From positions 1 to 64,000 of IMG/VR virus record IMGVR_UViG_3300010399_000033: DNA of 64,000 nucleotides, one strand, 5' to 3'. Positions 1,719 to 36,701 of the stretch are shown in pieces; the stretch's first letter is position 1, and each line of letters starts with the position of its first letter. A program made the translations under genes and the position numbers. The notes below the pieces were generated by a model, which did no database searches, was not told where the DNA came from, and saw nothing but the letters and a program-made list of their open reading frames with translations. The DNA comes from a virus.

Positions 1719-2039
1719 ATGCTGATCATCCCACTGCAGGCGGCTCCATCGCAGATACTCAACACCGTGCTTGCGGAGCAGGCTGTCACGCTGCGCGTGT
1801 ACCAAAGGTTTTACGGGCTGTTCATCGACCTGCTGGTCGACGATGCCCTGATCGTTGGAGGGGTGATTTGTCAGAACCTCAACCGTATCGTGCGCTCTGT
1901 CTATCTAGCGTTTGATGGGGACTTCATCTTCATTGACAATCAGGGCGAAACGGATCCTGTCTACACGGGTCTGGGTATTCGTTATTCGTTGGCTTACCTG
2001 TCATCGCAGGATCTGGCCGATCTGGGATTTGACGCATGA
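1719..2039 (+). CDS. Baseplate plug-like protein
   Basis: 106 aa, MLIIPLQAAPSQ...GDFIFID..G..DP.YTGLG.RY.L.Y; position between Dit-like and hub genes. Confidence 0.7.
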   Translation: MLIIPLQAAPSQILNTVLAEQAVTLRVYQRFYGLFIDLLVDDALIVGGVICQNLNRIVRSVYLAFDGDFIFIDNQGETDPVYTGLGIRYSLAYLSSQDLADLGFDA

Positions 2040-2896
2040 CCTTTGTACGTCGCCGCATCAAGCTGACGGTGTCCGGCACCAAGATCGCCGGGCTGACAGA
2101 GGAGGGCTTGCGTACGTCGGTCCGCGTCGCCATGGCCGGCGAGGTGCAGATGGGGACGGCGGACGTGCTTGTGTATGGGCTGACGCTCGACACCATGAAC
2201 CAGCTCGCGACCTTCGGACAGCGCGTTACCGAATATCAGCGAAACACCTTGATCATCGAGGCGGGTGACGCTGTCAATGGAATGTCGGAGATCTTTCGGG
2301 GAACCATCACCCAGGCCTGGCCGGACTTTCAAGGGGCGCCGCTGGTCCCGTTCCACATCCTCGCGCAGGCCGGGCTCATTGACGCGATGAAACCGGTCGA
2401 GCCCATGTCGTTTGACGGAAGCACCGACGTCGCCACGATCCTGAAGAAGGTGCAGGGCCAGATGGACGAGGTGTCGGTGTTCGAGAACCACGGGGTGAAC
2501 GTCAAGCTGGACTCGCCCTACCTGTGGGGCTCCCCGCGCAACATGGTCAAGCAGATCGCGGCGGCGGCCGGAATTTCATGGGTGATTGATCGCAACGTGC
2601 TTGCCGTCATGCCGCAGAACAAGGCGCGCGGAGGTGGAGGCTTGCTGGTCGCGCCGGAAACAGGCATGGTGTCATACCCGGGTTTCACAGCTGTCGGGGT
2701 GCTGGTCAAGCAGGAGTTTTCACGCGCGCTGTCCTACAGGCAGAAGTTCACGGTCAAGTCCGACATCGTTCCGGCCTGCGGCGATTGGATGATCAACAGG
2801 TTGGAGTACGATCTTGAATCCGAGGTTCCCAAGGGCCACTGGTTCGTGACGATCGAGGGCATCAGGGAAGGCCAGGGGCCCACCGTGTCCTCCTGA
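2036..2896 (+). CDS. Baseplate hub protein
   Basis: ATGA overlap with upstream gene; IIEAGD..IFRGTI and GMVSYP motifs; synteny. Confidence 0.7.
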   Translation: MTFVRRRIKLTVSGTKIAGLTEEGLRTSVRVAMAGEVQMGTADVLVYGLTLDTMNQLATFGQRVTEYQRNTLIIEAGDAVNGMSEIFRGTITQAWPDFQGAPLVPFHILAQAGLIDAMKPVEPMSFDGSTDVATILKKVQGQMDEVSVFENHGVNVKLDSPYLWGSPRNMVKQIAAAAGISWVIDRNVLAVMPQNKARGGGGLLVAPETGMVSYPGFTAVGVLVKQEFSRALSYRQKFTVKSDIVPACGDWMINRLEYDLESEVPKGHWFVTIEGIREGQGPTVSS

Positions 2897-3984: not shown

Positions 3985-5466
3985 ATGGCGACCACGACCG
4001 TCACCACCAACGTCCCGGGCCCGACGTTCGGAACTCAGGGCTTCATCGAGCCCGCGGAGTCGGACATCCTGCGCGGCATTGTGCAGGACATACAGGCCGC
4101 CTTCGGTGGTGTGCTGAACTTCAGCACGACGGACGGAAGCTTGACTAACGCTACACCGCAGGGACAGCTCGCCGCGTCGATCGCCGCGATCGTCGGTAAC
4201 GTCAACGACACGTTTCTGATGATGACGCAAATGCTGGACCCGGCCTTCTCGTTCGGCCGGTACCAGGACGGCCTCGCGCGCATCTACTTCATTGAGCGCA
4301 ATCCATCGCTGCCGACAGTCGTCGAGGCACTCTGCACAGGTTTGGAGGGCGTCCTGATTCCAGTCGGCGCCACAGCTAAAGCTGTCGATGGCAACCTGTA
4401 CACATGCACTGGATCAGGCACGATCCCCGCCTCGGGCAGCATTACCCTTCCCTTCGCATGCACAATTCCTGGTCCGATCCCCTGCCCGCCCGGCGCGCTC
4501 GACACCATTTTCTCGACGATCCTCGGCTGGGACCGCATTGAGAACCTGACTGAGGGCATCCTTGGCCAGGACCTTGAGACGCGCGCTCAGTTCGAGCGCA
4601 GGAGATCGTTGTCGGTGGCGCATAACGCGCTGGGCTTCCTGCCGGCGATCTTGGGAGCTGTGCTGTCGCTGGAGGGGGTGCTCGACGCCTACGTCGTGGA
4701 GAACGTGGAGAATGTCCCACGCACGATCGGCGGTGTGATACTTGCTCCAAACTCGCTCTATGTCGCTGTCGTCGGTGGTGATCCGGACGAGATCTGTCGG
4801 GCGATCTGGGAGATAAAGGCTCCCGGCTGCGCGTACAACGGCAACACGACCCGCACCGTGTACGACACCAGCGAGGGCTACAACCCGCCGTTCCCGGCCT
4901 ATCAGGTGTCCTACCAGGTTCCCGATCCGCTGCCTGTGATATTTGCGGTCACCATCAAGCCGAACCCGCTGGTGCCGGCGAACGCGCTGTCCTTGACCCA
5001 GCAGGCGATCGTCAGGGCGATGGCCGGGGCCGACGGGGGGTCGCGCGCGACGATCGGCGCGACCTTGTTCGCGTCGCGCTACTACGAGCCTGTAGCCGAG
5101 GCTTTGGGCCCCACAGTCGCGATCGTCAACATCAAGATCGGCACCCAGAACACAGCCTCCGCTAAGTTCAACGGGATGATCTCGTCGGGTTCACTCGGCG
5201 GCACGCTGACCGTCACCTCGGTTACCTCAGGCACGCTGTCTGCAGGTCAGACGGTGCAGGGGTCAGGCGTCGCTGCAGGCACGATGATACTCGGCCTGCT
5301 GTCCGGGACGCTTGGCGGCACTGGTACCTACCGGGTGTCCCTGTCGCAGACGACGGTCGCGCAAGTGATGTACGGGGTACGCGCGCTGGTGGACGAGTCA
5401 CCGGTTCTGATCGATCAGGCGCCCACCGTCGCGCTCGCTGACATAACATTGATACTGGAAACATAG
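3985..5466 (+). CDS. Baseplate J / gp47 family protein
   Basis: TPQGQL, GQDLET..F..RR and [18 protein letters not shown] motifs. Confidence 0.85.
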
Positions 5467-5467
5467 G

Positions 5468-6214
5468 ATGACTGGACCCGATCTTCCGCGCGGACCGATT
5501 CCCAACGCGATCGGCGAGTTCGTCATTGGCGAGTCGCCGATAGGCACCCAGCCTCCATTTGATATCTGGGACACGATTCTATCGCAGTACGCTAACTCGC
5601 CGATCATTGTTCAGCTGATCCAGAACTTCTTCTCGTACGTCGACCAGACCGCGAACCTGGACGACTTCTTTGACAAGGTCTGGAACCTGGACACAGCCGA
5701 GGGCTACGGCCTTGACGTGTGGGGTCGGATCGTCGGCGTCAACCGCGTCCTGCAGATCACTGTAGGCAAGTGGTTCGGCTTCGCGGAGATGGGCACCCTC
5801 GATGCTGATCCCTTCGGCCAGTCAGCGCTGTGGTCGGGCACCCCACTCACCGAGAACTTCTTCTTGTCGGATCAGTCATACCGCACATTGATCCTGACGA
5901 AGGCTGCGGCGAACATTACCTCGGGCAGCATCCCGGCGATCAACAGGATGCTGATGACCCTATTTCCCAACAGAGGGAACGCATACGTCACCGAGGGAAA
6001 CCCGCCGGTTCTGTTCTTCGGTTTCGCCGAGCAGCTCAACACCGTGACCGGCTTTAACCAGGCCGCGTTCTACAACGGGGCGCAGCAGCCCCGCATGACC
6101 ATGACCTACACATTCAACTTCGCCCTTACCCCGCCTGAGCAGGCGATCGTCACCAATTCCGGAGTGCTGCCGAAACCGACAGGGGTCAAGGCAAGCGTCG
6201 TACAACTGTACTGA
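5468..6214 (+). CDS. DUF2612-family baseplate wedge protein
   Basis: SQYANSP...WNLDTAEGYGLDVWGRIVGVNR...LPKPTGV signature. Confidence 0.85.
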   Translation: MTGPDLPRGPIPNAIGEFVIGESPIGTQPPFDIWDTILSQYANSPIIVQLIQNFFSYVDQTANLDDFFDKVWNLDTAEGYGLDVWGRIVGVNRVLQITVGKWFGFAEMGTLDADPFGQSALWSGTPLTENFFLSDQSYRTLILTKAAANITSGSIPAINRMLMTLFPNRGNAYVTEGNPPVLFFGFAEQLNTVTGFNQAAFYNGAQQPRMTMTYTFNFALTPPEQAIVTNSGVLPKPTGVKASVVQLY

Positions 6215-6227
6215 GGAGCCCTTCCCC

Positions 6228-7502
6228 ATGAAAGCAGCTGCTATTCCTGCCAAGTTCAATATCCCGTTTGCTTCGGCGGCAGGTGCTTCCTACATCCGTC
6301 CAATACCGCAGGCGAGCCAGATCGGCATCACCGACGGCGCAGCCTCGCTGACCGATGGCTTTCCGCCGCTGAACTTCCTGCCTGTGGGCTCAGGCGGTAT
6401 CCCGCCATTTGGGCAGGACTTCAACGGCCTGTTGAAGCAGGTCACCCAGTGGAACCAGTGGGCAGCGGCCGAGGGGCCGGTTTTTTACGACGCGACGTTC
6501 GCGGCAGCGGTCGGCGGATATCCGAAAGGAGCCGTGGTGCTGTCACCGGTCGACTACGTGACCTTCTGGCTGTGCACGGTCGACGACAACAGCTCGAACC
6601 CCGACACCGGCGGCGCCAACTGGGTGAAGCTTGACTATCAGATCCCGTTCGGCACGGCTGCCGGCACCGCCAACGCGATTACCACGACGCTGTCCCCCGC
6701 ACCTTACCCGGTGGATTGGCTGCACATCCGGTTGTTCCTTGTTCGTATCACGGCTCTTCAGACAGGTGCGTGCACGATCGCGCCTAATGGTCTTGCCGCA
6801 AGAACTATTGTGATGGCAGATGGGGTAACGACCCCTCCTGGTAAGACTCTCAGCCCGGGCGCCGTCGCCTTCTTCTACAACGACGGCACCAACGTCAGGC
6901 TGCTCGGCGCCTTCGGTGGCGCGACCGGTGTTCTGGGTGCTCGTGGCGCGTACTCGCAGAGCGTCGCGGGGAGCTACAACTTCACGGTTCCGGATGGCGT
7001 TTACGCGCTCTACATCGAGCTGGTGGGTGGCGGCGGTGGTGGCGGTGGCTGCGGGGCCGCGATCGGGGGCACCGGTGGTGGCGGTGCCGGCTTCACTGCG
7101 GGTGTGAATTTGGTCACGCCTGGCCAGGTGCTGGCCATCGTTGTCGGAGCCAAGGGCACCGGGGGTGCCCCTACAGTCGACGGGACTGACGGGACCGCGT
7201 CAACAATAGTTTCGCTGGGACTCACTGCCCAACCCGGAGGCAAAGGTTCGGCCGGTGGCGTCGCCGGTGGCGCATCTGGTGGGGGCACGGGTGGCCAAAA
7301 GAACCTTACCGGAGGTGGTGGTGGGTCCGGGTTCAACATCGGTGGCTACCTTCTGGGTGGCACCGGCGGCGGCATACTCAGCACTGCCGGCCTGCCTAAT
7401 GGAGGCGTCGCCTCCAGCGCAGGCGGCGGTGGTGCTGGTGGCGGACAAGGTCCCACGCCCGGCGGTAACGGCCACGACGGCTACGTGCTGATTACGTACT
7501 GA
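6228..7502 (+). CDS. Tail fibre protein with C-terminal glycine-rich domain
   Basis: N-terminal ASLTDGFPPLN..GGIPPFGQDFNG..GGYPKGA baseplate-attachment domain; C-terminal FTVPDGV..ELVGGGGGG..G.DGYVLITY domain. No signal peptide. Confidence 0.85.
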   Translation: MKAAAIPAKFNIPFASAAGASYIRPIPQASQIGITDGAASLTDGFPPLNFLPVGSGGIPPFGQDFNGLLKQVTQWNQWAAAEGPVFYDATFAAAVGGYPKGAVVLSPVDYVTFWLCTVDDNSSNPDTGGANWVKLDYQIPFGTAAGTANAITTTLSPAPYPVDWLHIRLFLVRITALQTGACTIAPNGLAARTIVMADGVTTPPGKTLSPGAVAFFYNDGTNVRLLGAFGGATGVLGARGAYSQSVAGSYNFTVPDGVYALYIELVGGGGGGGGCGAAIGGTGGGGAGFTAGVNLVTPGQVLAIVVGAKGTGGAPTVDGTDGTASTIVSLGLTAQPGGKGSAGGVAGGASGGGTGGQKNLTGGGGGSGFNIGGYLLGGTGGGILSTAGLPNGGVASSAGGGGAGGGQGPTPGGNGHDGYVLITY

Positions 7503-7537
7503 AGACGTTTCCCATTCTTTGGAAGAAGGAGCCTGAG

Positions 7538-10159
7538 ATGCTTCGCGCTGTAATTCTCGTAGCCGCTATGCTGGCGGGATTGATCTCGCATGCGTGTGCG
7601 CAGTCCTCGCCGAACCTGTCTAAAGGTCAGGTGCCCACCGCCGGCCAGTGGAACTCCTACTTCTCCGCGAAGCAGGACGTCCTCAACTTCCCGCCGTTGA
7701 ACAAGAACGGCGACGCGATGTTGGGGCGGTTGGCGATCGCCCCGCCGACCACGGGCGCGTTCCTGTCCCGCTTCAACGTCGGACCGGGCATCGTACCTAG
7801 TGCGCCCGCAGACGGGGATATCTGGACGACCCCTGACGGCCTGTATGTGCAGATCGCGGGTGCGACTGTCGGTCCGCTGATGTCCACAGCAGCCCTTGCT
7901 GGCGCCGCACCGATCACAGTAACCGGAACGACTGTCGGTATCAGCACCAACTCCAACGCATTCTCCACGGTGAGCAGCCAGTTGGCGCTTGCCACGGGTG
8001 GTGTTGCCTACGGCAGTCCGACAGGTGGTCAGCTCGGCGCTGGTATCTTTAACGCGAAGGGATACTACGTCGACAATGTGAAGGTGCCGACGATCTCGTC
8101 GACCGACACCCTCACCAACAAGACCTGGAACGGCGTCGCTGTCGACGTCGCGCACGGGGGCACAGGGGCTGTAACGGCCCCGGCTGCCCTGGAAAATCTG
8201 GGGGCAGCGCCTGTCAGCTGGCCGGCGAACTACTTGGCGAACGGCGACTTCTCTGTCTGGACCCTGTGCCCTTTGATGAACTGCACCGTGCAGATCGTAG
8301 ACGGCACGCTGGGCACCACCACCGGCTTCCCGACAACGCCCGTTGGCATCATCAACCTCTGGCCGAACTCGTGGAATCTTGGTGCTGGTTACGGTGGTAC
8401 CGTGACCTTCTCACTGCAGAACTTCACCGACAACCAGACGACCGTTCCCGGGTATCCGCAGCGTTTCGCGCGAGGAACCTGGACCGTCGCTCCGACGTTG
8501 GGAAGCTACACCGAGAACCCCCCGTCCGGCACGTGCTCGTCCCCGGGTGGCGCTACGCTGACCGGCTGTCGAAACACCTACCTAGACAGCGGGGTCGTCC
8601 GTGAGTACACCTCGTTCGGTGCTGGCAACACCTACACGGTCAGCGGCTGGTTCCGCGCGTCCACGACCAGCGTCTTCGTCGCGCCGATCCTTTACTACTC
8701 GCTGGGCTACAACGATTGGGTGCTGGGCCAGGACGCCCAGCTTGTCGGCGGGTACGCCAACCACACCGCGACCAATGGGCAGTACTACGTCTATCAGGCG
8801 ACCTCGTCGGGCCTCACCGGGCGCACCGTCACCGGTGTGGCGAACAACGGTTCGGGTCTGTGCCGCATCACCGTTGACTCCACCGCGAACTACACGACAG
8901 GTCGCACAGCTGTTGTCGCCTCGCTTGGGGGGACGACGACATGCAACGGCACCTACACGATCACCGTCATCGACGGAACGCACATCGACCTGCAGTCGTC
9001 CTCGTTCTCGGGCACGTTCACATCAGGTGGGGCAATCGGTATGCCTCCGACGACGGCGACGATCGGCGCGACTCAGAATGACGGCAACGTCACCTGGCAG
9101 AACAAGGGCTACGCCAAAGGGCGTTCCTACGATCTCTACGAGGGCTCATACACACCGGGTGCTGTGACGTCGTCGGGTTATAATCAGGGGCAGGTAGCGA
9201 ACGGCTCGACCGGCTGCACCATCACGACGTCCTGGACCTTCTGTAAGGTCACGATCGTTCTTCCCCCGCCCGAGTACAACAACTTGGGGGACTACGCGTG
9301 GTCGGTTGAGGACCCAACTCGCCAGCTGCTGCCGTGGAACCTGACAAATCTCTACTTCGGCGGATCTAACAACGCGGTGCTCCAGTTTGGGGTCGACATC
9401 GTCGGACCCCTTGGTGCGCAGAGCATCGACTACGCACAGATCCAGGTTGAGCCCGGCACGCAGGCGACCGTGTTCCACAAGGTTCCGCACAGGTTGCAGC
9501 GGCTGTGGTCCATGAATCTGGAGGACCTGCTGGGCTACATGCCGCTCAGCCCGTCGCAGAAGACCGGCTTTCTCACCCAGACCAGATACAACGACGTCGG
9601 CAACTCCGCGACGTTCGCACGCCGCGTTATAGCGACGGCTATCAGTGGAACGTCCATCGCCAACCAGGACGGCGTGTCCGGCGACCCGACCCTTCAAGGA
9701 ACCGTGGGAATCCCCGGTGGAGGGACGGGTTACACCGTTGCCCCCGCCACCGCGAAGGGTGGGCCGGCGAGCCCCACCGGCAGCGCCAGCGCCACCCTCG
9801 TGATGGCCGGTATCGGTAGCTCGGCGACGATCACCCCGACCACCACCGGTTTCCTGGACATCACGTTCCAAGGTTACTTCACATCCGACACGGTGGGTAG
9901 TGGATGTCAGTTCAACATTCGCACCGGTACCGGCACGGCCCCCGCGAACGGGGCCGCAGCGACGGGCACCACACAGAGTTCAGCAAATTCCCTCGGGACT
10001 GTGACGGTCGCCAATACACATCAGGTACCCTTCACCATCCGGGCCATAGGAAGCGCGACGGCTGGCGTCGCCAATTGGATGGATCTGGCGTTTAGGATCG
10101 TAAACGCCGGCACGTGCACTCTCGCTTCTGTGTCCTGGACAGCCGTGGAACTGCGATGA
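7538..10159 (+). CDS. Fibre/receptor-binding-like protein with predicted Sec signal peptide
   Basis: MLRAVILVAAMLAGLISHACA|QSSPN. Thr/Gly-rich beta segments, a HGGTGA..A.AALENLG fibre motif and a NYLANGDFSVW...QVEPGTQAT carbohydrate-binding-like domain. Follows the tail fibre gene. Confidence 0.7.
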   Translation: MLRAVILVAAMLAGLISHACAQSSPNLSKGQVPTAGQWNSYFSAKQDVLNFPPLNKNGDAMLGRLAIAPPTTGAFLSRFNVGPGIVPSAPADGDIWTTPDGLYVQIAGATVGPLMSTAALAGAAPITVTGTTVGISTNSNAFSTVSSQLALATGGVAYGSPTGGQLGAGIFNAKGYYVDNVKVPTISSTDTLTNKTWNGVAVDVAHGGTGAVTAPAALENLGAAPVSWPANYLANGDFSVWTLCPLMNCTVQIVDGTLGTTTGFPTTPVGIINLWPNSWNLGAGYGGTVTFSLQNFTDNQTTVPGYPQRFARGTWTVAPTLGSYTENPPSGTCSSPGGATLTGCRNTYLDSGVVREYTSFGAGNTYTVSGWFRASTTSVFVAPILYYSLGYNDWVLGQDAQLVGGYANHTATNGQYYVYQATSSGLTGRTVTGVANNGSGLCRITVDSTANYTTGRTAVVASLGGTTTCNGTYTITVIDGTHIDLQSSSFSGTFTSGGAIGMPPTTATIGATQNDGNVTWQNKGYAKGRSYDLYEGSYTPGAVTSSGYNQGQVANGSTGCTITTSWTFCKVTIVLPPPEYNNLGDYAWSVEDPTRQLLPWNLTNLYFGGSNNAVLQFGVDIVGPLGAQSIDYAQIQVEPGTQATVFHKVPHRLQRLWSMNLEDLLGYMPLSPSQKTGFLTQTRYNDVGNSATFARRVIATAISGTSIANQDGVSGDPTLQGTVGIPGGGTGYTVAPATAKGGPASPTGSASATLVMAGIGSSATITPTTTGFLDITFQGYFTSDTVGSGCQFNIRTGTGTAPANGAAATGTTQSSANSLGTVTVANTHQVPFTIRAIGSATAGVANWMDLAFRIVNAGTCTLASVSWTAVELR

Positions 10160-11964
10160 AACGCCTTATCTTTGTTCTCGCTGCATGGCTGGCGCAGGTA
10201 TCATTCCTGTCAGCGCAGTCCTCCCCAAACTTCAGCCGCGGCTTTGTGCCGTCACCAGCGCAGTGGATCTCCTACTTCGCCGGCAAGCAGGACGTCCTCG
10301 GCTACAGCCCTGTCAACAAGGCAGGAGATACGATACTGGGTCGTTTGGTCGTCTCGTCCGGATCGATTTCTGGTCGCGCAGCCCTCAACGTTGCTCCCGG
10401 TACCGTTCCCAGCGCCCCCGTAGACGGGGATATCTGGGTGACGATCAATGGTCTGTTTGTGCAGATCGGCGGTCAGACGATCGGTCCGCTGCTGGCGGCT
10501 CCTATCACGATCGGCGATCTGTTCCTCAGCCCTATAACCATCGTCGACGCGACCGGCTGGTACGGATTGAACGTCGCGACACCCGACACGCCGCTGACCA
10601 TCGCATATGACAGCGGCACCACCCCGATAGAGACCGAGCCCGGCGCGCTCGCGCACTTCATCGGCACGACCGGCTTCGCCGGAACGCTCTGGGTGGACTC
10701 GTTCGGAAACGTTCCAACCGCGCTTGACTGCCGCGGTGCTGGTGGAACCAGAGAGGTACCGGCAGCATCAGGAGCAGGTGCTGTCCTCTGTCAGATCAAC
10801 GCGCAGGGCCACGACGGTACGGACTTCGCCAAGTCCGGCCGTCTGCGCTTCACCACGGCTGAGGCGTGGGCCCCCACCGCGCACGGGACGTACTTCGAGA
10901 TCTTCACGACCCAGATCGGGACGACCAACAACACCGCGAAGGTGAAGGTCGCCGATGACGGTGGGGTCATGGGCCCGCCGACCGTGACCGGAGGAAGCAA
11001 GGGCTCAGGCACCTCCAACATGGAGGGAGGCTTCTACGAGGCTGGCACGAAGATCACGCAGTCAAAAAGCACGATCATCACCACGACCAACACGTTCAGC
11101 CCGCAGACATGGTCGAAGACCATCCAGGTCGAGGCCTGCGGATCAGGAGGCGGCGGGGGCGGCGGTGCGCGTGTTGCGGCAAGTGGATCAGGCGGGGGCG
11201 GCGGTGGTGCAGGATCGTGCGCGCGGGCATCCTTCTCGGTAGCGGACGTCTCCTTTCCGATCACGTGCACCGTTGGTGCGGCTGGTACCGCAGGCACGGC
11301 CGCGTCGTCCGACTCCAACCCTGGGGGCAACGGCGGTGCGGGCGGAAATACGACGTTCGGTGCGCTGCTGACAGGCTTTGGTGGCGGCCTGGGTGCCGGA
11401 GGACAGAGCGCTGCTGCATCTGGCGGCGGAGGCGGTGCTGCGCTCGGCGCCGTCGGTGGAAATGCTAGCGGGTCGACCGCTGGTTCTGCGGGTACCGGTG
11501 TCTCCAATGGCGGTGCTGGTGGCAGCGGTGCTGCAGGTGCCGCGTCAAACTTCGGCGGTAGTGGCGGCGGGGGCGGCGCAGCGACCGGAGGTGCTTTCGC
11601 TGGCGGATCGACCTCACCCTCGGGGGGCGCGACCGGCGGCGGTTCAGGCGGAGGCATCACCGCGGGTCCGACGTTCAACGCGGGTGGTGCGGGTGGTCCG
11701 ACCATCCAGAACGTGTCAGGACTTGCTGGCGGCGCGACTGATGGGGCATCCGGCACGAGCGCTGCGCAGAGCATCTACTTCAACTCGTCTAATGGTCTTG
11801 GAGGAGGTGGAGGCGCGTCGTCTGCAGCTTCCACTGCGGGTGCCGGAGCTGCCGGGCAGATTCCTGGTGGCGGAGGAGGTGGCGGAGGAACCTCCATCAA
11901 CACTCACACGGCTGGCAACGGCGGCCTGGGCGGAAAGGGATGGTGCCGGGTCGTAGAGTTCTGA
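10156..11964 (+). CDS. Second fibre-like protein with predicted Sec signal peptide and glycine-rich C-terminal domain
   Basis: ATGA overlap at 10156; MKRLIFVLAAWLAQVSFLSA|QSSPN. First ~110 mature aa are paralogous to 7538..10159. Confidence 0.7.
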   Translation: MKRLIFVLAAWLAQVSFLSAQSSPNFSRGFVPSPAQWISYFAGKQDVLGYSPVNKAGDTILGRLVVSSGSISGRAALNVAPGTVPSAPVDGDIWVTINGLFVQIGGQTIGPLLAAPITIGDLFLSPITIVDATGWYGLNVATPDTPLTIAYDSGTTPIETEPGALAHFIGTTGFAGTLWVDSFGNVPTALDCRGAGGTREVPAASGAGAVLCQINAQGHDGTDFAKSGRLRFTTAEAWAPTAHGTYFEIFTTQIGTTNNTAKVKVADDGGVMGPPTVTGGSKGSGTSNMEGGFYEAGTKITQSKSTIITTTNTFSPQTWSKTIQVEACGSGGGGGGGARVAASGSGGGGGGAGSCARASFSVADVSFPITCTVGAAGTAGTAASSDSNPGGNGGAGGNTTFGALLTGFGGGLGAGGQSAAASGGGGGAALGAVGGNASGSTAGSAGTGVSNGGAGGSGAAGAASNFGGSGGGGGAATGGAFAGGSTSPSGGATGGGSGGGITAGPTFNAGGAGGPTIQNVSGLAGGATDGASGTSAAQSIYFNSSNGLGGGGGASSAASTAGAGAAGQIPGGGGGGGGTSINTHTAGNGGLGGKGWCRVVEF

Positions 11965-12030
11965 AATACGTTTGCTAAGCACGATTTGGCCTGATAAAAG
12001 GCGGGATTGAGTTAAACAGAGTGCCTCGAA

Positions 12031-12687
12031 ATGATCATCGCGAAAGAAGCTGTCGACTTCATCGTGGCTAAAGAGGTCTCATCCCGCCAACATTACGAGG
12101 CGGTGCTTCACCGCCCTGAGTGGCCTGAGGGCGAGTCCGGAGTGACGATTGGCATTGGCTACGACTTGGGCTACGCTACGCGTAGCGACGTTGATCACGA
12201 TTGGGGGCCGTATCTTCCTGCTGAGATGATACCCCAGCTTAAACGTTGCTGCGGAGTAACAGGGATCGCCGCTCGCGATCTATGCCGGAAGGTTCGTGGT
12301 AGCATCTCTGTTCCGTGGACAGCTGCCATGATTGTGTTTATGGAGCGCGATATCCCCAAGTGGGACTCCGCGGTCCGAAAAGCCCTTCCAAATTACGACG
12401 AGCTTGGTTTGCTGTGTCGTGGTGTGCTCGTCAGTCTCGCATACAATCGCGGCGCATCGTTCAGCAAGAAAGGCGATCGCTACGAGGAAATGCGCGCGAT
12501 CAAAGCGCGCATGACAGCTCGTGACTTTCTCGCCATACCGGCTGAGATAGAATCGATGAAACGTCTTTGGACGTCGCCGTCGAATCGAGGCGTTGCCCTG
12601 CGGCGTGGTGGGGAGGCTGAGCTGTTTCGGAAAGGTTTGCAGCAGATGGCTGCTGCATCGAATGAGGAGAGTAGCGGAAAGTCATGA
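12031..12687 (+). CDS. Endolysin (pesticin-C/lysozyme-like muramidase)
   Basis: KE..Y..P.WP.G.SGVTIGIGYDLG...LVSLAYNRG...RR.GEAELF; first gene of the lysis cassette. Confidence 0.85.
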   Translation: MIIAKEAVDFIVAKEVSSRQHYEAVLHRPEWPEGESGVTIGIGYDLGYATRSDVDHDWGPYLPAEMIPQLKRCCGVTGIAARDLCRKVRGSISVPWTAAMIVFMERDIPKWDSAVRKALPNYDELGLLCRGVLVSLAYNRGASFSKKGDRYEEMRAIKARMTARDFLAIPAEIESMKRLWTSPSNRGVALRRGGEAELFRKGLQQMAAASNEESSGKS

Positions 12688-12983
12688 ACACCGATCAGAC
12701 AAAGGGCATCGCCGAGCGCCTGGTCTACGCCGCCGTGATGGCGGTGTTGGTGAAGCTCGTCGGAAAGGGCTACATCGACCAGGACATGGCCGCGTACATC
12801 GCCGCAGGCGCGACCACCGCGGTCGGCGGCGCGTGGGCATGGTGGATCAACCGTCCGAAGGCGCTTGCACAAGCCGCAGCAGCTCAGAAGGGCTTCACCG
12901 TTGTGACCGACGCGCAGACCGCGCACGACACCCCTGAGACCAACATCGTATCTAGCGCAACCATGAAGGTGGTCCCGAAATGA
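12684..12983 (+). CDS. Putative holin
   Basis: 99 aa, two hydrophobic helices ending AWAWW; ATGA-coupled to the endolysin. Confidence 0.65.
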   Translation: MNTDQTKGIAERLVYAAVMAVLVKLVGKGYIDQDMAAYIAAGATTAVGGAWAWWINRPKALAQAAAAQKGFTVVTDAQTAHDTPETNIVSSATMKVVPK

Positions 12984-13354
12984 AGCGTTTCCTCGTCGCA
13001 GTTCTCGTCGCCGTCAGCATCACCGGCTGCGCGCAGCTCCGCATCCTCACCGGCTCGGTCGACAACCCGGTCGATCGCACCACGTTGGCGCAGGTCGAGC
13101 AGACCTTGGATCTCGCCACCAAGAGCCTGCTCGTCTATCGGCGCTCATGTCTCAGTGGAGCGGCGGACGTGCATTGCCGCGCCAACATTCGCGCGATCCA
13201 GGTCTATACTCGACAGGTGCCGCCGCTGGTCGCGCAGCTGCGGGGATTCGTCAAGGACAATGACCAGGTCAACGCGCTGGTCGTTTACAATCAGCTCACG
13301 CAGCTGATGACCAACGCCAAGCGCATCGCCATTGCGAGCGGCATCACGCAATAG
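12980..13354 (+). CDS. Lipoprotein in the lysis cassette (spanin-like role possible)
   Basis: MKRFLVAVLVAVSITG|C lipobox; coupled to the holin. Confidence 0.65.
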   Translation: MKRFLVAVLVAVSITGCAQLRILTGSVDNPVDRTTLAQVEQTLDLATKSLLVYRRSCLSGAADVHCRANIRAIQVYTRQVPPLVAQLRGFVKDNDQVNALVVYNQLTQLMTNAKRIAIASGITQ

Positions 13355-25912: not shown

Positions 25913-27319
25913 TCAGTCCGATGACGAAGAACTTCCGCCGCTGTCCGATGACGACGAGCCTGAGTCATAGCTGCCGCCGCTATCGGACGACGAGCTTGAG
26001 CTGAAGCTTCCGCCGGAGTCATCAGACGACGAGGAAGACGAGAACGACCCGCCGTCATCGTCATTTGAACGTGAGGGTCGTGATGACTCGCGCTCCTCGC
26101 GAGGAGGTGCGCGATACGAGTTGCTGCGGTCATCGTCGCGCCATGACCGTGACTCGCGCTCGACGATGACCGGTGTCTCGACGAACACAACACTTGGGGA
26201 TGCCGCTGGAGTCTCTGCAGCTCTTTGATAGTCCGAGTGCTGCGATCGCGCCCGGCTTTGAGCAACATGGACGTGATTGCGGTGATGTGTCTTGCGTTCC
26301 TCCCGATGATGGGGCTTTGTCTGCTCGGGCTCCTTATCCTCGAGGAATTTTCCCGCATTGATCTCGGCCGCCAGACGCCGCGCGGGTGTGATATAGCGGA
26401 TCAGGATGGAGGAATAGCGCTGCTCGTTGCGTTGATAGCTTCCGACAGACAGACCATCCGCATTCGGATCAGGACCGCTGATGTGGTCGAATCCCATGAA
26501 TGCCGACATCGCGGCGTTGGCGTGACGGTGAAAATCCGCCAGCTTGCGATTGGCATCCTGCCGGCGTTCCGGATCAGCGTTGTTGACCTTCGCCTGAAGG
26601 ACGGGGCCAAGCGTCTCATCGCTGATTTCCAGAAGGCCGCTCACGACCTCGGAGCGAACTCGTCGCGCATCGGCCTGCGCGGACCGTGTGTTGCGGCGAT
26701 CCTCCCGCATTCTGCTCGTGACGGCGAGAAGACCGAACACCGACCCCGCGAGCGCACCTCCGATTGTCAGCCACATCAGCCACTTCCATAGCCCGGAGTG
26801 GTCTGCGGCCTGATTGATAATGGTGGTGCCCGTCGGACGCTGCAGGAATAGTGTGCTCATGTCCCCGAGTGTGGCGATGAGAGCGGGACCAATACGGTTG
26901 CTCTCACCCGCCTTGTGTGCAGTCACGGCCGGCACGAACTTGTCGCGGATGATGTCCTGCCACTTGCCGGACAGTTTGGGCTGGCTGGAGACGCCGTAGT
27001 AGAAGCCAATATCAGGCTTCTGGCCCGGCGCGTAGAACAGCATGATCATGCTGCTGCGCAGCCCGCCGCTACTGTTGTGCCAGTCGGCGCAAAACGCCAC
27101 GAAGCTGTCCTTCAGAGCGTCCAGGTTCGGCGAGCCGTGCAGTCCGTTGAAGACTCGGACACGCACGTCAGCGCTCGCCGCATTTCCGAATGCCCGCGCC
27201 GCGTTCTCGACGCCACCCATGTTCGGCAAGCCCACCTCGTCGACCACCGGATTATCGCAGCCTGCCATGGCGCCTGTGGACAGGGCCGCGGCGATTGCCA
27301 CTATCATCATCCTGCGCAT
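25913..27319 (-). CDS. TPM (DUF477)-like membrane protein with Ser/Gly/Asp-rich tail
   Basis: Signal peptide, alpha/beta periplasmic domain, one TM, cytoplasmic helix, SSSSDSGGS tail. Confidence 0.6.
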   Translation of the reverse strand: MRRMMIVAIAAALSTGAMAGCDNPVVDEVGLPNMGGVENAARAFGNAASADVRVRVFNGLHGSPNLDALKDSFVAFCADWHNSSGGLRSSMIMLFYAPGQKPDIGFYYGVSSQPKLSGKWQDIIRDKFVPAVTAHKAGESNRIGPALIATLGDMSTLFLQRPTGTTIINQAADHSGLWKWLMWLTIGGALAGSVFGLLAVTSRMREDRRNTRSAQADARRVRSEVVSGLLEISDETLGPVLQAKVNNADPERRQDANRKLADFHRHANAAMSAFMGFDHISGPDPNADGLSVGSYQRNEQRYSSILIRYITPARRLAAEINAGKFLEDKEPEQTKPHHREERKTHHRNHVHVAQSRARSQHSDYQRAAETPAASPSVVFVETPVIVERESRSWRDDDRSNSYRAPPREERESSRPSRSNDDDGGSFSSSSSSDDSGGSFSSSSSSDSGGSYDSGSSSSDSGGSSSSSD

Positions 27320-36606: not shown

Positions 36607-36628
36607 GGCGAATCGCTGAAAAAGAAGG

Positions 36629-36701
36629 GGCCAGTTGCAGGAGTTGAACCTGCATCTTCTGCTTACAAGGCAGTTGCTCTATCCAATTGAGCTAAACCGG
36701 C
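36629..36701 (-). tRNA. tRNA-Thr(UGU)
   Basis: GCCGGTT-TAGCTCAATTGGATAGAGC-AACTGC-CT TGT AA-GCAGA-AGATGCAGG-TTCAACT-CCTGC-AACTGGC. CCA is not encoded (ends C-CCT). Confidence 0.9.

Follow-up and report, generated by a model that had tools for sequence, protein, structure and literature searches.

Genes A and B lie in tandem in the window, a 64,000-nt stretch of DNA that belongs to the 110-kb genome of a soil phage with hundreds of uncultured relatives in Rhizobium-type bacteria. Both open reading frames are present as described in an earlier, sequence-only reading, between a tail fibre gene and the lysis genes. The features of the locus are as follows.

3985..5466, Baseplate_J gene, upstream of gene A
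5468..6214, DUF2612 gene, upstream of gene A
6228..7502, plus strand, leaderless tail fibre gene, 424 aa (phrog_12796 tail fibre, E 2e-40)
7526..7531, plus strand, Shine-Dalgarno sequence AAGGAG, 6 nt 5′ of the gene A ATG at 7538
7538..10159, plus strand, gene A, 873 aa
7538..7600, plus strand, gene A leader, 21 aa, with a basic n-region (MLR), a hydrophobic core and A-C-A before Gln
7601..7885, plus strand, gene A shared mature N-domain, 95 aa
7886..10159, plus strand, gene A body with five consecutive Cys pairs
8810..9037, gene A knob module, ~75 aa (residues 425-500)
9758..10156, gene A C-terminal tip domain (residues 741-873), common to other fibres
10156..11964, plus strand, gene B, 602 aa
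10156..10215, plus strand, gene B leader, 20 aa, beginning MKR and ending L-S-A before Gln
10216..10497, plus strand, gene B shared mature N-domain
10498..11964, plus strand, gene B body with six Cys and a glycine-rich C-terminal half
12031..13354, plus strand, lysis genes, directly 3′ of gene B
12031..12687, plus strand, pesticin-type lysozyme gene
12684..12983, plus strand, holin-like gene
12980..13354, plus strand, spanin-like lipoprotein gene with a lipobox

The genes are closely packed. The tail fibre gene is separated from A by 35 nt, A and B overlap as ATGA, 66 nt separate B from the lysozyme gene, and no promoter-like or terminator-like site was found between the fibre genes and the lysis genes. 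The tail fibre carries a C-terminal Gly_rich_2 domain (PF21722, 31.6 bits), and its first ~135 residues are kept in all relatives as judged by tblastn synteny; it is a candidate neighbour of the A and B proteins on the baseplate. Conservation of the tail-module position in homologues was borne out in ~25 related phage or prophage loci, where the same order of hub gp41-like gene, Baseplate_J, DUF2612 and tail fibre precedes the homologous gene; each copy examined sits in a phage or prophage tail module, and in 8 relatives the gap between tail fibre and leader gene is -8 to 25 nt. The upstream fibre in relatives also has its own chaperone-like ORF, and since it has its own C-terminal domain as well, the particle has no obvious need for more fibres. 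The slot 3′ of the leader gene is occupied in relatives by surface-sugar-modifying genes (acyltransferase-3, glycosyltransferase, signal-peptide SGNH hydrolase). This is where non-virion accessory genes sit, an observation that counts against a virion role.

Because the Shine-Dalgarno sequence at 7526..7531 fixes the ATG at 7538, gene A starts with its whole leader. A public gene call (P0006, 863 aa) began the gene at Met11 and thereby cut the leader; that start has no Shine-Dalgarno site and was rejected. Gene B most likely starts at the ATG at 10156, which overlaps the stop codon of A, and a listed alternative, GTG at 10114, would add 14 residues. The gene A leader is predicted from its sequence to be a Sec/signal-peptidase-I signal peptide. 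Both leaders had been described as ending in AxA; the description holds for A (..HACA|QSSPN) but not for B (..FLSA|QSSPN), which has L at -3. Leucine at this position is less usual for signal peptidase I and counts against cleavage. Leaders are not widespread among this phage's proteins: a crude scan for them over the real genes of the whole 110-kb genome picked only A, B, the lipoprotein and a single protein of 468 aa.

Following the leader, the two proteins share a mature N-terminal domain and then diverge, as had been proposed. BLASTP aligned A and B at 52% identity over residues 1-128 (E 1e-34) and found nothing significant beyond residue 128, and the 5′ DNA is 62% identical (213/342) with identical runs of up to 16 bases. 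The N-domain opens with a unique N-part of ~31 aa, starting QSSPN, and continues with a single fibre repeat whose motif is PG.xP..P..GD.W. It was modelled as a monomer with a helix and a beta-meander (pLDDT 70.6), and comparison with solved adaptors gave no match in sequence or fold. For full-length A the model was poor (pLDDT 38). The C-terminal tip of A also occurs in the leaderless fibre P0009. Gene B matches phrog_863 (E 2e-8); its Gly_rich_2 (PF21722) score over residues 310-514 is 21.8 bits (E 2e-4), below the gathering cut-off of 24.3 bits, and its BLASTP comparison with the upstream tail fibre was not significant. The mature chain of A contains the expected ten cysteines in five consecutive pairs (244/249, 333/344, 442/469, 560/569 and 790/860), the last of which spans 70 residues, and that of B contains six (192/212, 328/355 and 371/597).

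A family profile was built from the mature domain alone, without the leader; at E≤1e-3 it matched 6461 proteins, and the stricter limit of E≤1e-30 left 430 protein clusters. A leader is present in 92 of the 98 top matches whose sequence opens with the N-part. The leaders are 18-28 aa long in 90/92 (33 and 94 aa in the other two), the net charge of the n-region is +1 to +3 in 90/92, and the best 9-residue hydropathy exceeds 2 in nearly all. Position -3 is A in 73/92 and V in 9/92, position -1 is A in 70/92, G in 6/92 and S in 5/92, and position +1 is Q in 83/92. A and B have no lipobox Cys at +1, and no Tat twin-arginine motif of the S-R-R-x-F-L-K type was seen. Across the family the leader varies in sequence, in contrast to a mature start that hardly changes. 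Conservation is highest in the N-domain, with 19 invariant columns, and the bodies, which include Peptidase_S74, pectate-lyase, Collar and Gly-rich modules, are swapped between members. Two objections to the leader, that homologues mostly lack it and that true starts lie downstream of it, both fail, since homologues keep it and no start codon lies just past it. Profile positions 32-92 correspond to the fibre repeat, which occurs in 3-14 copies in leaderless fibre-type proteins.

Cysteine content was compared between leader-bearing members and leaderless fibres with the same repeat. The mature chain has an even number of cysteines in 74/87 members (p 8e-12), as opposed to 17/41 leaderless fibres (Fisher p 1.6e-6 versus leader-bearing), p-values that are approximate given that the representatives are mutually related and some are fragments. 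Cysteine frequencies are 0.97% and 0.26%, respectively. The median gap within pairs (Cys1-2, Cys3-4 and so on) is 16 aa versus 91 aa between pairs, and local pairing is seen in 60/61 family proteins versus 6/16 controls. Thirty-one members carry a cysteine in the leader itself; in these the mature chain has an even count in 25/31, and the precursor in 7/31. Even, locally paired cysteines occur only in leader-bearing members.

Export, cleavage and disulfide formation are well supported by leader conservation, the -3/-1/+1 pattern, the even and locally paired cysteines and the fact that leader cysteines fall outside the count. On this sequence evidence A and B are very probably exported by Sec, cleaved and disulfide-bonded, and the export half of the original proposal (Sec, AxA|Q processing and oxidative folding) thus has strong statistical support across the family. 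Taken together, the secretion signals and paired cysteines point to folding of A and B in the periplasm and not in the cytoplasm. The host Sec pathway would export both proteins, signal peptidase I would cut before Gln, after residue 21 in A and residue 20 in B, and the host Dsb system would add the local disulfides. Our literature search found no published description of this route for tailed-phage fibre-like proteins.

Six leaderless members were found, forming three groups nested among leader-bearing ones. In 5/6 the protein starts M-[A/G]-x-P, which after Met removal gives the register of the predicted mature end and so also lends indirect support to cleavage there, and at two loci with a leaderless MAGPP form the gene occupies the same slot and its cysteines are odd in number and sparse. 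N-domain distances correlate with the Baseplate_J (r 0.72) and DUF2612 (r 0.73) distances, and so do those of the tail fibre's own N-terminus (r 0.73), while the bodies are swapped; the co-divergence of the N-domain with the baseplate could simply reflect linkage between adjacent genes.

The conserved tail-module position, the fibre-repeat half of the N-domain, the co-divergence with the baseplate and the three leaderless lineages in the same register lead us to infer that A and B use the QSSPN N-domain to join the virion, at or after lysis, a proposal with an even chance of being right. A and B would then be late-operon, fibre-type receptor-binding proteins, and the N-domain, with its helix, single fibre repeat, free N-terminus and fixed register, would most likely be the adaptor that docks them on the baseplate. 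The baseplate is built in the cytoplasm, and docking could occur only after the inner membrane has been opened by the holin or the cell has lysed; because it must await one of these events, the two alternative fibres would be added as the last step of assembly. For the explanation as a whole, export, folding and late docking combined, we consider the case evenly balanced. More tentatively, and with some doubt, we suggest that assembly is holin-gated, host-recognition fibres folded with disulfides in the periplasm being fitted to the finished particle as holin lesions merge the compartments, or after lysis; as part of the same tentative reading, this would extend to a large group of soil phages infecting Rhizobium-type bacteria.

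All of the export and disulfide evidence also fits proteins that are exported but never sit on the particle. A periplasmic pool built up late in infection would be freed at lysis as soluble receptor-binding or glycan-cutting proteins, and these might remove or cover the surface polysaccharide of nearby cells and of debris, preventing loss of progeny by re-adsorption or easing diffusion through exopolysaccharide. The pectate-lyase-like bodies and S74 modules of some members would suit such a role, and leaderless variants would also be freed at lysis. Nonetheless, a soluble protein has no need of a docking domain, yet the N-domain is the part with the 19 invariant columns, its N-terminal register does not shift and its divergence parallels that of the baseplate wedge. 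We regard the soluble pool, and with it the polysaccharide-stripping role, as unlikely. A decidedly improbable alternative is that the exported proteins act within the cell envelope during infection or lysogeny, engaging the receptor or its precursors from the periplasm and so blocking superinfection. Genes for exported exclusion proteins are known to lie next to receptor-binding genes, and A and B homologues border the slot with acyltransferase-3, glycosyltransferase and SGNH hydrolase genes. However, the genes are tightly coupled to late tail genes with no promoter-like site found, A and B have no lipobox, their 600-870 aa are ten times the size of known blockers, and a periplasmic action would be impossible for the three leaderless lineages, which keep the domain in the same slot. 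It is very improbable that the hydrophobic N-terminus is no export signal but a helix buried in the baseplate or a membrane tether during assembly of cytoplasmic proteins: leaderless members do show that the domain can work without export, and the public call did begin A at Met11, but the Shine-Dalgarno site favours the long start, and the -3/-1/+1 pattern, the variable leader sequence with constant physical properties, the restriction of even, paired cysteines to leader-bearing members and the exclusion of leader cysteines from the pairing count would all be left unexplained.

Export followed by late docking, the reading we prefer, would combine traits of several known systems. Modular receptor-binding proteins, in which a shared N-terminal adaptor carries swapped distal parts, include those of the P2 gpH type, CBA120 TSP1-4 and G7C gp63.1/gp66. 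A and B resemble them in following baseplate wedge genes, in joining a common N-domain to unrelated bodies and in the S74, pectate-lyase, Collar and Gly-rich modules of the family. To our knowledge, all known modular receptor-binding proteins of tailed phages are leaderless and assembled in the cytoplasm, whereas A and B have a predicted cleavable Sec leader and paired cysteines. By the textbook account, tailed-phage assembly takes place wholly in the reducing cytoplasm. The pIII protein of filamentous phages, a receptor-binding virion protein with a Sec signal peptide and periplasmic disulfides, shares its leader and disulfides with the route proposed for A and B; in contrast to tailed phages, which assemble in the cytoplasm, its inoviruses are extruded at the membrane and export is part of assembly. 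T5 Llp, phi80/N15 Cor and lambda Lom are, like A and B, phage-encoded signal-sequence proteins beside tail-fibre genes, and T5 Llp and phi80 Cor block the receptor from the periplasmic side. They are small lipoproteins or outer-membrane proteins that lack fibre modules and are expressed separately, early or in the lysogen for the Llp and Cor type, whereas A and B are fibre-type and coupled to the late operon.

Outside phages, the closest architecture is that of the mosaic adhesive trimer (MAT) fibres of Bdellovibrio bacteriovorus, in which a signal peptide and a conserved, beta-rich N-domain of ~130 aa precede a fibre with swappable tips; some carry S74 chaperone domains, and one solved tip contains a disulfide (PMC10769870). 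The A/B family has the same succession of signal peptide, conserved N-domain and variable fibre bodies, a likeness in architecture. MATs are cellular genes of the predator, displayed on its own surface, while A and B lie in phage tail modules beside lysis genes. A PDB search with the N-domain gave no match, and only the tips of MAT fibres are in the PDB. In the portion of the article available, Agrobacterium phage Milano, which is contractile-tailed and infects the same host order, is described as having disulfide-bonded receptor-binding proteins, as predicted for A and B (PMC10811340). The Milano disulfides described there crosslink leaderless subunits of the sheath, baseplate and fibres within the particle, whereas the cysteines of the A/B family form local pairs within one chain and accompany a leader; a term search of the Milano text, as far as it was available, found neither 'periplasm' nor 'cytoplasm' (PMC10811340).

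If receptor-binding proteins do mature in the periplasm, virion assembly gains a compartment-spanning step tied to lysis, and on the holin-gated reading the timing of lysis would double as an assembly checkpoint. Lineages would switch between the periplasmic and the ordinary cytoplasmic route by gain or loss of a leader. A signal peptide would no longer exclude a virion protein in annotation or in receptor-binding-protein prediction tools, and producing such fibres recombinantly would call for expression in the periplasm or under oxidising conditions. Even without a place on the particle, exported fibre-like proteins conserved as a class in tail modules would represent a new kind of phage accessory function. 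The domain is absent from all 50,697 isolated phage records; that a family of this size (hundreds of 50%-identity clusters) is missing from cultured phages points to a blind spot in the collections. If the fibres mature in the periplasm, the phage would depend on host Sec, signal peptidase and Dsb functions, which could then offer routes to resistance. The phage itself encodes no DsbA-family protein; such proteins are encoded by lysogens of three relatives.

The two leader-bearing fibre-like proteins, A and B, are encoded in the window, which covers the first 64 kb of an IMG/VR virus record of 110,243 bp rated 99% complete. Their genes had been placed between the tail fibre gene and the lysis genes, and the gene order across 6228..13354 agrees with this.

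Gene neighbourhood of A and B (window coordinates, strand, gene)
2036..2896, +, baseplate hub gene, gp41-like
3985..5466, +, Baseplate_J gene
5468..6214, +, DUF2612 wedge gene
6228..7502, +, tail fibre gene, 424 aa, leaderless (the upstream fibre)
7538..10159, +, gene A, 873 aa
10156..11964, +, gene B, 602 aa
12031..12687, +, pesticin-type lysozyme gene
12684..12983, +, holin-like gene, weak Phage_holin_10 match
12980..13354, +, lipoprotein gene with a lipobox (..ITGC)

An AAGGAG motif 6 nt 5′ of the ATG fixes the start of A, and the stop codon of A is overlapped by the ATG of B. Since no promoter-like or terminator-like sites were found from the upstream fibre gene through A and B to the lysozyme gene, we read these genes as a single late transcription unit. 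The lysis cassette (12031..13354) showed no separate inner-membrane spanin partner. In public annotation, A is called as an 863-aa protein beginning at position 7568 (Met11), which halves the leader; signal peptides like this one will therefore be missed by automatic annotation. In a simple whole-genome leader scan, the only clearly exported-looking phage protein besides A, B and the lysis lipoprotein was a 468-aa product (25913..27319, −) with no Pfam match. Its leader ends in ..GAMA, and the G-C that follows makes it a possible lipoprotein. A tRNA-Thr (TGT) gene is located at 36627..36701 on the − strand.

As described in the sequence-only reading, A and B have a common N-terminal region and then diverge. 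Residues 1–128 are 52% identical (E 1e-34), the proteins are unrelated beyond this point, and the likeness is also apparent in the 5′ DNA (62% identity). Both begin with a basic and then a hydrophobic stretch that ends in small residues and is followed by Gln, forming a predicted Sec/signal peptidase I leader. The shared mature domain (N-domain, ~95 aa) is composed of two halves, a unique N-part of ~31 residues starting QSSPN and a single copy of a fibre repeat. A profile made from the mature domain alone (A1), and thus unable to favour leader-bearing proteins, was run against 1.84 billion representative proteins and matched 6461 at E≤1e-3 and 430 at E≤1e-30. Leader statistics were derived from the 98 distinct proteins starting with the N-part among the best 150 matches, leaving out a 99th row that represents a shorter gene call of A. 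Retention of the leader in homologues, on which the earlier proposal depended, was found in 92 of these 98 proteins; the leaders span 18–28 residues, except for two of 33 and 94 residues. Of the 92 leaders, 90 have a positive n-region, Ala occupies position −3 in 73 and −1 in 70, and Gln is the first mature residue in 83; the leader sequences themselves are freely variable. At related loci, the Gln follows 19–24 codons after an ATG that has a Shine-Dalgarno-like site. This N-terminal pattern is classic for a cleaved Sec signal peptide, as predicted from sequence.

Mature A contains ten Cys residues as five consecutive predicted pairs (244–249, 333–344, 442–469, 560–569 and 790–860) and mature B contains six, as first counted, and pairs 1 to 4 of A are kept in its relatives wherever the segment aligns. 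Among leader-bearing members, 74 of 87 have an even number of mature Cys (p 8e-12), compared with 17 of 41 leaderless control fibres with the repeat (Fisher p 1.6e-6); proteins in these sets are mutually related and some are fragments, so the p-values are rough, and the effect sizes are large. Cys is 3.6 times commoner in the leader-bearing set than in leaderless repeat fibres and falls in local consecutive pairs in 60/61 proteins (controls, 6/16), with median gaps of 16 residues inside pairs and 91 between them. When the leader itself carries Cys (n=31), the count is even for the mature chain in 25 members and for the whole precursor in 7, which places the leader Cys outside the pairing. The six leaderless members carrying the N-part have few Cys, in odd numbers.

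Body modules shared between leaderless and leader-bearing proteins offered too few comparisons to count. At Cys-pair positions of five leader-bearing copies of the knob module (A residues 425–500), the leaderless protein P0010 has I and E. Another module, which five leader-bearing proteins have in common with P0147 and P0010, both leaderless, shows no clean Cys pattern. Cys pairs in the C-terminal tip (A residues 741–873) also occur in a leaderless member. DsbA-family genes are present in bacteria with related prophages, and none is encoded by the phage. The four Cys tests agree on predicted disulfides of an exported protein, and these statistics make export, cleavage and Cys pairing of A and B very probable.

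The repeat (~55–60 aa; PG.xP..P..GD.W...G....G.T.GP; A1 profile positions 32–92; for example, window 7694..7885) matched no family in Pfam or PHROG. It occurs 3–14 times in long fibre-type proteins, most of them leaderless and a few with Bacteroidota-style leaders. A had no matches in Pfam and PHROGs, nor did A1, A or B in PDB sequence searches. An AlphaFold2 model of full-length A from a 6-row alignment had a mean pLDDT of 38, with moderate confidence in the knob module and C-terminal tip only. The predicted N-domain model retrieved nothing from PDB at E≤0.001 (Foldseek), and ESM Atlas returned weak leads only (T4 gp9/10 N-domain and Mtd_N at 0.87).

The tail-module position expected of homologues is kept at ~25 related loci, where the gene lies immediately 3′ of the same hub, wedge and fibre genes. 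Their sources are viral contigs together with the genomes of Rhizobium, Labrys, Lichenihabitans, uncultured Alphaproteobacteria and a Sulfuritalea bin; the family includes WP_004121286.1, annotated as a hypothetical protein, from the cultured lysogen Rhizobium freirei PRF 81. Eight loci have −8 to 25 nt between fibre gene and leader gene; where this gap is longer, a chaperone-like ORF intervenes. A tandem pair of these genes is unique to this phage among the related loci. None of 50,697 isolated phage records matched either of two N-domains in tblastn, and the nearest isolates sharing the baseplate genes (Burkholderia phiE131, Acetobacter phiAO1) are without the gene. In viral contigs, homologues of the A body were limited to the same phage. 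Family bodies are highly diverse, with Peptidase_S74, pectate-lyase-like, Collar and Gly-rich modules and a majority without a Pfam match. At three loci (L017:6001-6513, and also L018 and L019), a 191-codon frame deep within the baseplate module, between the Baseplate_J and DUF2612 genes, encodes a ~170-aa precursor with a 24-aa leader. Its product has only the first ~27 N-part residues, followed by a small Cys-rich domain with no Pfam match.

Three indirect lines favour the N-domain as a putative docking adaptor. It is conserved while bodies are exchanged, which is the usual receptor-binding protein design. Its divergence tracks that of Baseplate_J (r 0.72) and DUF2612 (r 0.73), as does that of the upstream fibre N-terminus, and linkage alone could explain this co-divergence. 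Finally, the six leaderless members form three groups nested among leader-bearing ones. The leaderless MAGPP form keeps the same slot in two loci. In five of the six the sequence opens with M-[A/G]-x-P, and Met removal then yields an N-terminus exactly in register with the predicted cleavage product. If a protein does its work whether exported or not, its most likely place of action is where the two compartments meet, either outside the cell or, at lysis, on the particle, and this counts against a purely periplasmic job. Small exported blockers such as Llp and Cor are unlike A and B in size, lipid anchor and expression. B was also considered as a decoy copy of the binding domain of the upstream fibre, a reading rejected because the two have no significant similarity. 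An upstream stub completed by an exported distal fibre was not adopted as such, since a C-terminal domain is already present in the upstream fibre and relatives carry a chaperone-like ORF after it.

In the docking route that we propose, A and B would be synthesised late and leave the cytoplasm through Sec; signal peptidase I would cleave ahead of the Gln, which may then cyclise, and the host Dsb system would oxidise both proteins. Both would remain periplasmic until the neighbouring holin and lysozyme come into action; the mixing of periplasm and cytoplasm, we infer, would then allow the shared N-domain to dock both alternative fibres onto baseplates.

Full-text literature searches yielded no description of a tailed phage whose fibres are exported by Sec. 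The nearest architecture is that of the Bdellovibrio MAT fibre family, in which a conserved N-domain follows a signal peptide and the tips can be swapped (PMC10769870), although MAT fibres are cellular surface proteins and A and B are phage-encoded. In the excerpted account of phage Milano, which infects the same host order, virion disulfides link leaderless particle subunits to one another (PMC10811340).

P0007, an 820-aa metagenomic protein, has an A-type body including Cys pairs 1–4 behind another leader and another mature N-domain (starting QTAVRQSG), indicating that the exported-fibre design does not depend on one particular adaptor domain. Relatives have other genes in the slot that separates the leader-bearing fibre gene from the lysis genes (L004:7650-8330; L005:8262-10295; L013:7536-8735; L024 from ~10514). 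One is a Pfam-confirmed GDSL/SGNH hydrolase with its own signal peptide, others appear by eye acyltransferase-3-like or glycosyltransferase-like, and the slot genes are probably surface-sugar modification genes.
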